From Octopus vulgaris (Eukaryota): DNA of 64,000 bases. Below the pieces are notes generated by a model. That model was not told the origin of the DNA, made no database searches, and saw only the letters and a list, made by a program, of their open reading frames with translations. The stretch is taken from assembly GCA_951406725.2 (NCBI GenBank), contig OX597815.1:64170001-64234000 (forward strand), written 5' to 3'. Shown here piece by piece: positions 10,830 to 57,360 of this stretch (position 1 is the first letter of the stretch; every line of letters starts with the position of its first letter). The translations under genes were made by a program, and so were the position numbers.

Positions 10830-10865
10830 CAGTTGAAAAGGTCTCAATGACTGAAACCGGTACTG
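10830..10865 (+). ncRNA. Minimal hammerhead ribozyme motif, U3-A8 variant
   Basis: cag TTGAAAA GGTC tcaat GACT GAAA CCGG TA ctg; lies in a repeat (about 10690-10918) ending at (TA)n and related to 46930-47265 and 47675-48075. Confidence 0.7.
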
Positions 10866-10979
10866 AAATATTCTTTATAAAATTATTTTAGCATTTTCAA
10901 TCCTGACTTGTTTTTTTATATATATATATATATATATATATATATATATATTATATATATATACATATATATGTATTCT

Positions 10980-13900
10980 TCTTAAGGTCTACTTCTAGAA
11001 ATTCAGTGTTCTTCCTTTTCCTTGTATATGTGGTTTCGACTTCTTGTAGCGGTGTTGGAACCTGAAAAGTGTTATATAGCCAATCTTTCTACTCTTGTTG
11101 ATTCCTTTTCTATGACTCTTTCCTTAAGCTGATTTCTATATCTCCTTTCCATTCCATTTCTGCTTCTTACGCCATACATCATTCTTCCTGTGTATGTTAC
11201 AATTTTTCCTTTTTCCTAGTATTGCTGACCATTTTTGTACATTCTTACATATACCTTATCACCGATTCTAAAGAATGTTGGCATGTCTGTACTAGCACGT
11301 ATATTTTTCTTCACTGGTATCAGTTAATCATATATTGACTTCACCTTTCTGGCAAACATTAATTCTGCTGGTGAACTTCCTTCTGGCGCATTTGGGTTCG
11401 GAGTTACCCAGTATACCTCTAAGAATTGTTGGATCGCGATCTCATCCGTGGCTTCCTTATTAGCTTTATTTAAGGCTTTCTTAAAAGTGTCCACGAACCG
11501 TTCAGCCTTTCCATTCGATCTAGGATATAAGGTGCTATAGTTTTATATTCTAACGTGATCATCTCGTAGAATCTTTTAAACTCACAGGATACAAACTGAG
11601 TTCCGTTTTCAGGGACAATTATATCCAGTACACCAAATCTTGCGAACAGCTCGTGTAAGAAGTTTATAACCGTATATGAGATTGGTCGTTTACACCTCGA
11701 AACCTCAGGCCATTTTCTGTAGCTGTCCACCCTACCATTTACCGGGCCTGCAAAATCAATATGCAATTGGGACCATAGTATTTTCACTTCCGGCCAAGGT
11801 TCTCATGTTGTAGTACGTAGTTTCGCTGCCAGTGTACATCCTCTGCAGCCTTTTACCAGGCTTTCAACTTCCCTGTCCATGCTTGGCCAGTATACGAAAC
11901 TTCGCATCAGCGCTTTCATTCTAGAAATGCCTGGGTATCCTACATGAAACTCTTTTAGCATTCTCTTCTGTAATGTTTGTGGTATGACCACCCTCTCAGC
12001 GTACATTAGCACACCATCACATAAAGAGTACACGCTCATATCTTGGCAGATATTTGCATTAGACCTTTCTTTATTTCCTTTTGTGGACCACAGTTTTTTT
12101 TGTCTCATTAAAAAATTTGTCATTACTCGCATTTCTTTTTATTTCTTCCAAAGTTACTGGTAGTCCATGTACGATGTTCTACATCCCTTTTTTGTTTCCA
12201 CAAAACGTAATAGCAGCGCTAAGAGCGGATCTTAGCGCTGCTATTACGTTTTCTTCACTGGTTCGTTATTTCTCGGAATTAACCTAGACAGACTATCGGC
12301 ATGCCCCAACATTTTTGAAGGCAGATATTCCATTTTATTATCGTAGTTTAATAGAATGGTACCCCACCATTCTATTAACAAGGCAGAAAGCTGGCACAAT
12401 TGTTAGCAAACAGGGCGAAATGCTTAGCGGTATTTCGTCTGCCGCTACCTTCTGAGTTAAAATTCCGCCGAGGTCGACTTTGCCTTTCATCCTTTCGGGG
12501 TCGATTAAATAAGTACCAATTACGCACTGGGGTCGATATAATCAACTTAATCCGTTTGTCTGTCCTTGTTTGTCCCCTCTGTGTTTGTCCCCTTGTGGGC
12601 AATAAAGAAATAAGAATGGTACCCCCCGCTGCAGTCTGTTTGCCGTATATATTGGGATTCCTTTCTTGGATCCGTATATCATTTTTAGTGGTCTATGGCC
12701 TGTCTGCAACCAAAAACGTCTGCCATGGATGACCTGTGGAACTTTTCACGCCACATATTATAACCAACACCTCTTTTTCAATCTGGCTATAGCTCTTTTC
12801 CACCGGCAATAATGTCCTTGATGAGTGAGCTATGACCTTTCTCCTGCCATCATTATCCTTGTGAAGGAGCACGGCTCCTATCCCATACTCGCTAGCGTCT
12901 GCAGCTAGTATTATCGCTAGCTTTGAGTCGAAACGCATAAGATATAAGTCTGAAGCTAACGCTTCTTTTAACTCGTTAAATGCTTTCTGGCATTTCTCTG
13001 TCAAAACCCATATGGCATTTCTTTTTTATTTTAGTAATTCATTAAGTGGTGCCTTTACCTCATGTATATTTGGGATATATACTTGGTAATAATTTACCAA
13101 GCCTAGGAATGCTTGTAGCTCTGACACATTCGTCGGGGACGGCATATTTCGTATTGCCGTCGCCCTTGATGAGTACAGTCTGCGTCCACTTTCGTCGATT
13201 ACTTGACCTAGGTATTTTATTTTTCTCATCAAAAATTCGCATTTTTCTTCTGTCAATTTTAGTCCGTATTCATTTATTCTGGCTCTTTATCAAAATGTCA
13301 TCGAGGTAAGCGATGGTACGGCTCTGAGAGGTCTAACTTCCAGAACATTTTCCCTCCGTTTAGTATAGCAAATACTTATTCTGTGAGTAAGCAGTTGTTT
13401 AATCCGGCTGAGAAGTCTGCACACACTCTTAGCTTATTATTAATTTGTTTTACGTAGACCGCCGGTGTTGCCCAGTCTGCATTGTCAATCTTTTCAATTA
13501 TATTCAAGCCTTCCGACTTTTCTAGCTCCATTTAGGCCTGAAAATAGGCGTTGAATTTTCTTTGATAGCATTCCTTGCTTTTCATTTTGTGCAGCAGCCT
13601 CAACCTTCCGAAAAAACTTTTGGGAAAGTTTCTTACATTTTATTTATTTATTTATTCATTTATTTATTTTGTCTGTTTATCGACCTCATTCGATCATTTG
13701 ACTGCTCCGTTTGCGTTATTGCACAAAAGGCTTATGTGTGTATCCCATAAATTAAATTTCTCCATACATTCGATGTCAAATAAATTCATAGATTTTTTTC
13801 AATATATAACCAAGTCACTTCTTTAGTTCGACCTTTGAACATTATATTACAAACGCGTTCGCCCGTGAAATATAATTTTCTTCCCCGTAACACCATACTC

Positions 13901-14815
13901 TATTTTATTTGCACTACATAATTTTGGTTTACCTATTTGTCTCCATGTTTTCTCATTTATGATTGTGATATCACTTCCCGGGTCTAATTGCATTCTGACA
14001 CTAGTGGTTTCGATTCTCACATTCACGAATTTTCTGTTTGTTGTAGTCACAACTTTTCCTGCTGACAAGCTATTTATTTTTTCTTGTTTGTTCTATTTTC
14101 CTATCATTCTAGTTTTGCAGTGCGATATGTCCTATATACCCGCATCGAAACTACTTTGCTTTTTTATACGGACGATCTTTTTTGAGGTGCATCCCACCAC
14201 ATGCGATACATGGGTCTACATCTACATATTTTTTTCTGTTTTTCTTGCAACACTTTATTAGTCTTCCGACATTTTTGCACTAGTCTTATGTGAAAACACT
14301 CTTTCCATTGAAATTCTTCCGTGTCATACTTTAATTTTAATATCATGTCACACTCTTCCGACAGTTTCTGCACTGTCAAATCCTCGTTCATTTCCAGTTT
14401 TGCTAGAATTTTCGTTTGGATTTCTGCATCCCTTTTATCACTCAATCCTTGTGCAAAAATCAAACACTTGAAAGAATCCGGAGTAAGCCTAAATATTTCA
14501 CATTCTTTGTTGACTCTGCCTGTGTAAGTAGTGACATCTTCGCTCTTTTCTATGTTTAAGCATTTCCGTCTAGTATTAAACAGTGAGCTCTTTTCATTAA
14601 GCATTTTGCACAGAATGTCAACTGTGTCGATGAAATTTATGTCGGACGCTTTTTCTTTTGGCAATATGAAGTTACAATACTTCTCATGCTCTGCTGTCGC
14701 TAGTTTTCTTATAACTAGACGCGGTTTTATTTCGTCCGTCCAATCCTGACATTCTTTCTCAAAAATTTGTTGACATCTTCGAAACACTCGAAGGTTACTC
14801 CTTAAACATCGATCT
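10980..14815 (-). mobile_element. Decayed Ty3/Gypsy retrotransposon gag-pol (no LTRs seen)
   Basis: Minus-strand order: gag-like (14164-14826), protease 'MQLDPGSDITII' (13847-14068), RT 'KCEFLMRKIKYLGQVI..LQAFLGLVNYY', RNase H 'AADASEYGIGAVL..YSQIEKE', integrase Zn region 'FHVGYPGISRMK..YWP..CRGC', rve 'WSQLHIDFAGP'. PR-RT-RH-INT is the Gypsy order; many frameshifts. Confidence 0.92.
12379..12612 (+). mobile_element. SINE family A inserted in Gypsy pol with a 13-bp TSD
   Basis: agaatggtacccc at 12353-12365 and 12613-12625 flanks a near full-length copy. Confidence 0.9.
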
Positions 14816-15237
14816 ACTTGTTTCAATCATTTGACTGCAGTCATGTTGGAGTACCGCCTTGAAGAGTCTTTGGTGAACAAATCGACTTATTTTTGAAGCC
14901 TTGTACTAATTCTATCGGTCTCTTTTGCCGAACTGCTAAGTTACAGGAAAGTAAACACACCAACACCGGTTGTCAAGCGGTGTTGGGGACAAGCACAGCC
15001 ACGCACACACACACATACACACAAACACACACACATACACGCACACGCACACACAGGCACTGATATACACATACACGACGAGCTTCTCTCAGTTTGCGCT
15101 TATCAGATCGATTGAGAAGGCTTTGGTCACACTGAGGCTATAGCAGGAGATACTTCTTTGCTCAAGGTGCCAGGCAGTGTCACTGAACCCGAAACCATAT
15201 GGTTGGGAAGTAAATTTCTTACTACACGGCAACACCT
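14815..15237 (-). mobile_element. SINE family B, near full length
   Basis: tttcaatcatttgactgcag...ctatcggtctcttttgccgaac...(CA)n...ctcaaggtgccaggcagtgtcactgaacccgaaaccatatggttgg. Confidence 0.85.
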
Positions 15238-56900: not shown

Positions 56901-57029
56901 CGCTAAGACGAACTGTCAAGTGCACACGTAGACATATTATTTTAATGATTTATTCATAAAATTCAAATTTAATAACAGAATGACCACAATTCTAGAGTTG
57001 TTCTTCCTTGCAGTGTATATTTATATGTT

Positions 57030-57143
57030 TACTGCAAAAAAAGGGGAACCACTTTTCGGAGGATTATGAACTTATTTCCGAGGTAAAGTCTTGGCTCCAG
57101 ACACAACCTACAGCCTTCTACAGACAAGGTCTTCATAGCTGCA
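57030..57143 (+). pseudogene. mariner transposase C-terminal fragment
   Basis: KGNHFSEDYELISEVKSWLQTQPTAFYRQGLHS. Confidence 0.7.
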
Positions 57144-57171
57144 TATATATATATATATATATATATATATA

Positions 57172-57360
57172 TAAAATTTTCGTTGCGTCTTGCAACCTTT
57201 TCAATAGTCTTGACTCTGAGAGTCAAGACTATTGAAAAGGTTGCAAGACGCAACGAAAATTTTAGAAAATAAAAATAAGAAATAAGTGGAAATTTTACTG
57301 GTGAGTATGTTAAATAATAAGGCACTAAAAGAGAATGACTCTCCCTAGACACAACAGGAT
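57172..57360. mobile_element. (TA)n-flanked element with a perfect 46-bp palindrome and an intact U3-A8 HHR motif (57229-57265, +)
   Basis: cta TTGAAAA G GTTGC aagac GCAAC GAAA AT TT tag; arms 57172-57217 and 57219-57264; same family as 45611-45895. Confidence 0.85.

Follow-up and report, generated by a model that had tools for sequence, protein, structure and literature searches.

Two repeat families in a stretch of Octopus vulgaris DNA carry type-I hammerhead motifs whose core has a U-A pair at positions 3 and 8. The stretch is 64,000 nucleotides (nt) long (assembly GCA_951406725.2, contig OX597815.1, forward-strand positions 64,170,001 to 64,234,000), and it is called the window here and numbered from its first letter. 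The two families are the terminal repeats (pseudo-long terminal repeats, or pseudo-LTRs) of Penelope-like retrotransposons. Weak cutting, assisted by dimer formation or by a protein, is probably selected in the parent elements, and the copies in the window were probably made from uncut RNA and are probably passive now. The window has 35% GC (range 30-40%) and is rich in microsatellites; genome-wide counts refer to the 2.8-Gb assembly of 227 contigs.

A first-pass annotation of the window had placed seven sites of the two families, and all seven are present at those positions (Table 1). The sites were compared with a strict descriptor of the minimal type-I hammerhead: a Watson-Crick 3-8 pair, helix I of at least 3 base pairs (bp), helix II of at least 4 bp, a palindromic helix III, and U16.1-H17. 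Four of the seven match (10830-10865+, 46990-47027-, 45707-45743- and 57229-57265+); they are the window's four matches, and all have U3-A8. The other three depart from the descriptor in different ways: 47979+ has a broken helix II, G17 and a helix I of 2 bp; 45764+ has A opposite G10.1, with loss of the 10.1-11.1 pair, and a broken helix I; and at 57172- a (TA)n tract begins two bases past N17. Dinucleotide shuffling in 200-nt blocks (150 shuffles) gave a mean of 0.007 U3-A8 matches and a maximum of 1. The hammerhead motifs in the window are real.

Chance resemblance within A-rich repeat DNA might be suspected because the words UUGAAAA and GAAA are themselves A-rich and the window's GC content is 35%, and because Rfam covariance models returned no hammerhead family at E <=10 in 10790-10900 or 57215-57300 (the whole-window Rfam scan lists 150 of 525 matches). 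A scan of the window for type III hammerheads gave no match. However, four strict matches stand against the shuffled mean, the motifs sit in pseudo-LTRs, where published Penelope-like elements have them, and the S. mansoni(4) row in the supplement of PMC4209133 has an identical core, U17 and a 3-bp helix I. Chance is thus extremely improbable, and we count it as refuted by the shuffle test, by this S. mansoni row and by the direct repeats of the L224 element described next.

Evidence for the identity of the repeats came from fuller copies elsewhere in the genome, which connect both families to open reading frames (ORFs) with reverse transcriptase (RT) and GIY-YIG domains; all of these loci lie outside the window. 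On sequence evidence, families 1 and 2 are the pseudo-LTRs of two Penelope-like element lineages, an identity that the first-pass annotation had overlooked. For family 1, locus L224 has direct repeats 4,386 nt apart that flank an ORF, with U3-A8 at both ends of a 4.4-kb copy, and the optional tail downstream of the repeat continues into the ORF. Locus L227 matches RVT_1 at E 1.8e-7 and GIY-YIG at E 8e-4, the latter below the curated cut-off. The RT and GIY-YIG element at L061 has a 3' end matching family 1a, with inverted arms. Family 2 forms the 3' end of a second element, distant from that of family 1: L290 and L175 match GIY-YIG above the cut-off (E 8e-5 and 1e-6, respectively), with RVT_1 at only E 0.05 and RT-like motifs recognized by eye. 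Window positions 57219-57362 are 95-97% identical to the ends of the L290 RT and GIY-YIG element, which also has inverted arms. The element ORFs at these loci are interrupted by stops or frameshifts, and a tblastn search found no coding part of these elements within the window. Inverted 5' arms, optional tails of 30-60 nt and (TA)n targets are present, matching the published anatomy of Penelope-like elements (PMC8557442, PMC11167929). A CX2-5CxxC linker before GIY-YIG was seen by eye in the translations of L227, L290 and L193; a Cys linker in this position has been described for the Neptune and Nematis clades (PMC8557442). An ORF beside L032/L064 was considered as the family 2 partner and rejected in favour of L175 and L290, with (TA)n lying in between and no repeat recognized by eye at its 3' end. 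At L064:5088-7595 (-), a different RT and GIY-YIG-like element adjoins a family 2 copy, with no Pfam match at E 0.001.

The proposal that U3-A8 is the state of these families, and not decay, is borne out by genome-wide counts. Family 1 with U11.1 has 1,229 exact matches, and a young subfamily with canonical G10.1-C11.1 has 2,075, with U3-A8 in 99 of the first 100. Among family 1 contigs from four runs with four organism labels, no variant at U3 or A8 exceeds 2%, and positions 10.1 and 11.1 vary among letters compatible with G.U, A-U and G-C. The architecture of family 2 has 10,847 exact genomic matches. A sample of 67, taken from the first 60 places of contig C1, holds 36 G3-C8, 24 U3-A8, 7 mismatched and 0 C3-G8, so that 60 of the 67 are Watson-Crick at 3-8. 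That U3-A8 is a known natural variant, as also proposed, is confirmed by PMC3088659. G8 variants of the first family 1 pattern number only 31, and a C3-G8 version of family 1 was rejected, C3 occurring in 1 and U3.G8 in 18 of the 20 G8 copies examined. About half of 20 U3.G8 copies of family 1 (L066-L084) have a common upstream variant, and a small U3.G8 subfamily may have spread. Substitution counts in core and flank of family 1 copies, which are lower in the core, are biased by the anchor and by subfamily differences and were not used.

Both families belong to the minimal type-I hammerheads of Penelope-like elements, whose core is N3-UGAN-N8-A with GAAA and U16.1-H17 and whose helix I is short (2-5 bp), but they differ in anatomy. 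Family 1 has a 6-nt palindrome as helix III and lacks an extra base between A9 and 10.1; its 10.1-11.1 pair is G-C in the subfamily of 2,075 matches, and the subfamilies present in the window have G.U or A-U. Family 2 has G10.1-C11.1 in helix II and an extra nucleotide between A9 and 10.1. Helix I is 3 bp in families 1 and 2 but 2 bp in most 1b copies. Helix I had been described as varying in sequence yet staying paired, with three examples; one of these, taag/ctta, is private to the copy at 46990, since CUUA occurs in 0 of 15 other copies of its subfamily (1b) and A at 1.3 in 14 of 15. The usual helix I of this subfamily is therefore 2 bp, as judged from 20 regions chosen by loop sequence among 100 listed genomic places. 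Immediately 5' of U3 in family 1 lies a pyrimidine tract followed by AG that resembles a 3' splice site (10810-10832+; L146, L166), and in long G3-C8 copies a comparable site lies upstream of G3 by about 22 nt. Among the contigs compared, none contained a spliced joint at the family 1 tract, which is evidence neither way.

Three states of the 3-8 pair had been reported within the window, and all three are there: U3-A8, C3-G8 (18999-, 21351+) and G3-C8 (61195+). Each is the majority state of some repeat family, and the window's three C3-G8 and G3-C8 copies are imperfect. The repeat at 61195 belongs to a family with a G3-C8 majority and the head-to-head layout of family 2, and it ends a GIY-YIG element. 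This family (61190-61236+; L116-L174, L193, L226), whose young copies have a 7-bp helix I, is the most unusual item encountered. Degenerate CCCTAA-like repeats occur at 61385-61445 (+) in the window's copy of the G3-C8 subfamily, and likewise in the family majority. No ORF was found in 20 loci for the C3-G8 repeat of 21351. Related lineages differ by Watson-Crick exchanges at the 3-8 pair as well as in helix II, and the 3-8 pair is Watson-Crick as the majority in every lineage sampled. In an alignment (A1) of 26 hand-picked rows, drawn from the 67 matches plus two window copies, both partners change at the 3-8 pair and at two pairs of helix II, with a covariation of 0.49 compared with 0.20 after shuffling and at most 0.15 in slid controls. 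Because the rows and helix ends were partly set by choice or by the search pattern, this covariation is suggestive and is not a significance test. No report of a natural G3-C8 core, in octopus or in general, was found in the literature searched; data on natural G3-C8 or U3-A17 may be contained in Lunse et al. 2017, in Przybilski and Hammann 2007, or in the figures and supplement file 1 of PMC4209133.

The 3-8 pair has been reported to form and to matter in the cutting conformation (PMC3884650), U3-A8 is reported active in vitro (PMC3088659), and G3-C8 partly rescues activity (PMC11167929; PMC8495972). Compensation at the level of lineages suggests that the U3-A8 core is functional, and the motif is likely, on this prediction, still to cut RNA weakly in parent elements. 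Uncut RNA probably served as the template from which the window's copies were reverse-transcribed, and they are probably passive now. In tandem transcripts, two motifs would pair with each other through their palindromic helix III, or else folding would be helped by the protein of the element; slow cutting after N17 would follow, at some step visible to selection in the parent elements. Reverse transcription would begin just downstream of the repeat, mostly on uncut RNA, with the cut unneeded, and the products would be truncated, often head-to-head copies that later decay. The scheme has a precedent in published work where cutting was protein-assisted and dispensable for in vitro insertion, with unprocessed RNA as the chief substrate (PMC11167929).

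The 5' ends of the copies bear on the template. Among 79 family 2 arms, picked by a downstream anchor and with boundaries that are approximate in A-rich DNA, 18 extend upstream of U3 by more than 15 nt, 33 begin 3-14 nt upstream of it and 28 begin within or after the motif; the core is complete in 52. Three arms begin within 3 nt of the predicted cut, and none at the exact position. Arms of family 1 span the motif in 26 of 29 cases. That 5' ends do not gather at the cut agrees with the in vitro findings that the main substrate is unprocessed RNA and that cutting needs the protein (PMC11167929). The 33 family 2 arms starting 3-14 nt upstream of U3 (L229-L328) may mark a transcription start or an RT stop. 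For family 2, the 30 best matches had suggested that the 5' end is fixed and begins with a G derived from the cap. The idea was dropped: those matches were chosen by likeness to a query holding the G, and G precedes the boundary in only 4 of 10 unselected arms.

While these data are consistent with selected cutting in the parent elements, several observations weigh against it, and some of them also speak for a Penelope-like repeat whose U3-A8 motif has lost all or nearly all ribozyme activity and keeps its shape for another role, such as a protein-binding or RT signal, a promoter element or a splice acceptor. In the minimum-energy fold of family 1, U3 pairs with A17 and lengthens helix I (10833 with 10862; the combination also occurs at 47023 with its N17). 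This is the analogue of a C3-G17 pair presumed to block cutting, and a predicted off-state (PMC3884650). In family 2 the 4-nt helix III duplex is unstable (+2.2 kcal/mol), the active dimer is predicted 8 kcal/mol above the cofold minimum, and both of the window's pairs are predicted to fold into one long hairpin. The 2-bp helix I usual in subfamily 1b and the absent Rfam match also count against the account of weak cutting and an uncut template, as does L276, the one family 1 arm that starts exactly at the cut. Moreover, the compensation rests on about three lineages, not on many events, and A1 overstates it. A dead ribozyme would also account for the paucity of 5' ends at the cut, for the normal in vitro insertion of catalytic mutants (PMC11167929) and for the pyrimidine tract and AG that abut U3 in family 1. 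It is nevertheless unlikely, because the 3-8 pair counts only in the cutting conformation (PMC3884650), yet lineages hold U-A, G-C or C-G there and none has a mismatch majority, and because letters 4, 5, 6, 9, 12, 13 and 14 are constant across lineages where the search patterns left them free. That a pair of importance to catalysis alone has been retained is an argument for selection on cutting, even though in vitro insertion needs none (PMC11167929).

On another reading these are efficient ribozymes that process the transcript of each genomic copy, as the first-pass annotation implied, and short copies spread autonomously as retrozyme-like units. The high copy numbers speak for this, and the 33 of 79 family 2 arms that begin shortly upstream of U3 would fit a short transcript of their own. 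However, the window holds no direct tandem array of complete motifs, the head-to-head pairs are predicted to bury the motif, three of the seven window copies are decayed, and 5' ends lie upstream of the motif rather than at the cut; the idea is accordingly very unlikely. A bolder extension of weak, selected cutting is possible, if doubtful: related lineages may each have fixed U-A, G-C or C-G at 3-8 and stayed active, including a natural G3-C8 lineage with thousands of copies, with the U3-A17 pair of family 1 serving as an off-switch opened by a partner RNA or by the element's protein.

Parallels exist with the minimal type-I hammerheads of metazoan Penelope-like pseudo-LTRs, above all with the element Cercyon of S. 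mansoni, in which Cervera and de la Pena 2014 described U3-A8 with about 1,300 hits and low dimer activity (PMC4209133). As in family 2, the S. mansoni(4) row combines UUGAAAA and U17 with a 3-bp helix I and an additional base following A9; the palindromic helix III, the mostly solo truncated copies and the opposite-strand pairs are shared as well. Differences are the animal group, the lack of the extra base after A9 in family 1 together with its combination of U3 and A17, and the G3-C8 sister lineage in octopus, of which the supplement passages retrieved hold none. The extra base after A9 is usual and not universal in this class; like family 1, two rows in the supplement of PMC4209133 are without it. 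Since the UUGAAAA core has already been published in Penelope elements (PMC4209133), the U3-A8 families add members to a known pattern and extend it to another animal group. PAc, a Poseidon element of Anolis (Frangieh et al. 2024; PMC11167929), likewise has a pseudo-LTR hammerhead, a downstream tail reaching the ORF, AT-rich targets and copies that fit an uncut template. [quoted passage not shown]

The U3-A8 hammerheads of phage type reported by Perreault et al. 2011 have the same compensated core pair and are described as active in vitro; they are not described in the passages retrieved as retroelement dimer-type motifs, whereas helix III here is a bare palindrome (PMC3088659). Animal non-LTR retrozymes, too, are non-coding repeats of high copy number that contain a type-I hammerhead and are related to Penelope-like pseudo-LTRs (bioRxiv 10.64898/2026.07.22.740005; PMC7229834). 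Those retrozymes form head-to-tail arrays (bioRxiv 10.64898/2026.07.22.740005), while the octopus copies are solo or are head-to-head ends of coding elements, and nowhere in the window do two or more units with complete hammerheads follow each other head to tail. Searches based on CUGANGA overlook thousands of motifs in this genome, and the natural series of U-A, G-C and C-G in related elements offers a ready test of the hammerhead's role in Penelope-like elements.

Table 1. Hammerhead-bearing repeats in the window and their motifs.
Positions	Strand	Feature	Basis or remark
10393..10925	+	Family 1a remnant, 5'-truncated 3' end (3' untranslated region/pseudo-LTR) of Penelope-like element; ends in (TA)n	90% identity over 564 nt to 3' end of L061 element
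10830..10865	+	Family 1a minimal type-I hammerhead; U3-A8 and A17, with a G.U 10.1-11.1 pair; helix III a 6-nt palindrome; cut predicted after 10862	Strict descriptor and folding
18970..19001	-	Old separate C3-G8 minimal hammerhead family; helix I broken in window copy	
21325..21560	+	Older family 2 relative, C3-G8 core (C3 at 21351); tail region common with family 2	Helices I and III imperfect even in family majority
45610..45953	.	Family 2 head-to-head pair of pseudo-LTR ends; optional tail of about 60 nt on right arm; (TA)n flanks	Predicted single long hairpin, -59.4 kcal/mol
45707..45743	-	Family 2 hammerhead, U3-A8; helix II down to 4 bp	
45764..45800	+	Family 2 hammerhead, U3-A8; decayed (10.1-11.1 mismatch, broken helix I)	
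46896..47265	-	Family 1b left arm of head-to-head inverted insertion	
46990..47027	-	Family 1b hammerhead, U3-A8, strict; 4-bp helix I private to copy	
47675..48076	+	Family 1b right arm of inverted insertion	
47979..48016	+	Family 1b hammerhead, U3-A8; decayed, with G17 and a mismatch in helix II	
57172..57362	.	Family 2 head-to-head pair; arms 98.9% identical over 91 nt; (TA)n flanks	Predicted hairpin, -73.6 kcal/mol
57172..57207	-	Family 2 hammerhead, U3-A8; curtailed by (TA)n; helix I 2 bp	
57229..57265	+	Family 2 hammerhead, best copy; U3-A8 and U17, with an additional G following A9; helix II of 5 bp, helix III a 4-nt palindrome	
61190..61236	+	Family 2 sister, G3-C8 core, same architecture; one palindrome change in window copy	GIY-YIG ORF 44-48% identical to that of family 2

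Other elements occur in the window and elsewhere in the genome. A near-complete ORF of a non-LTR retrotransposon with one stop lies at 33829-36852 (-) and matches RVT_1 at E 2.7e-29; its C-terminal part resembles a restriction-like endonuclease. Broken remnants resembling an LTR retrotransposon (Integrase_H2C2, DUF7083) lie at 11470-14826 (-). Between two of the hammerhead pairs, an open frame at 46301-46711 (+) resembles a fragment of a Tc1/mariner transposase. Outside the window, an uninterrupted frame of 182 amino acids at L139:2064-2610 (+), which resembles dCMP deaminase, lies about 60 nt from a G3-C8 copy with a short target duplication.

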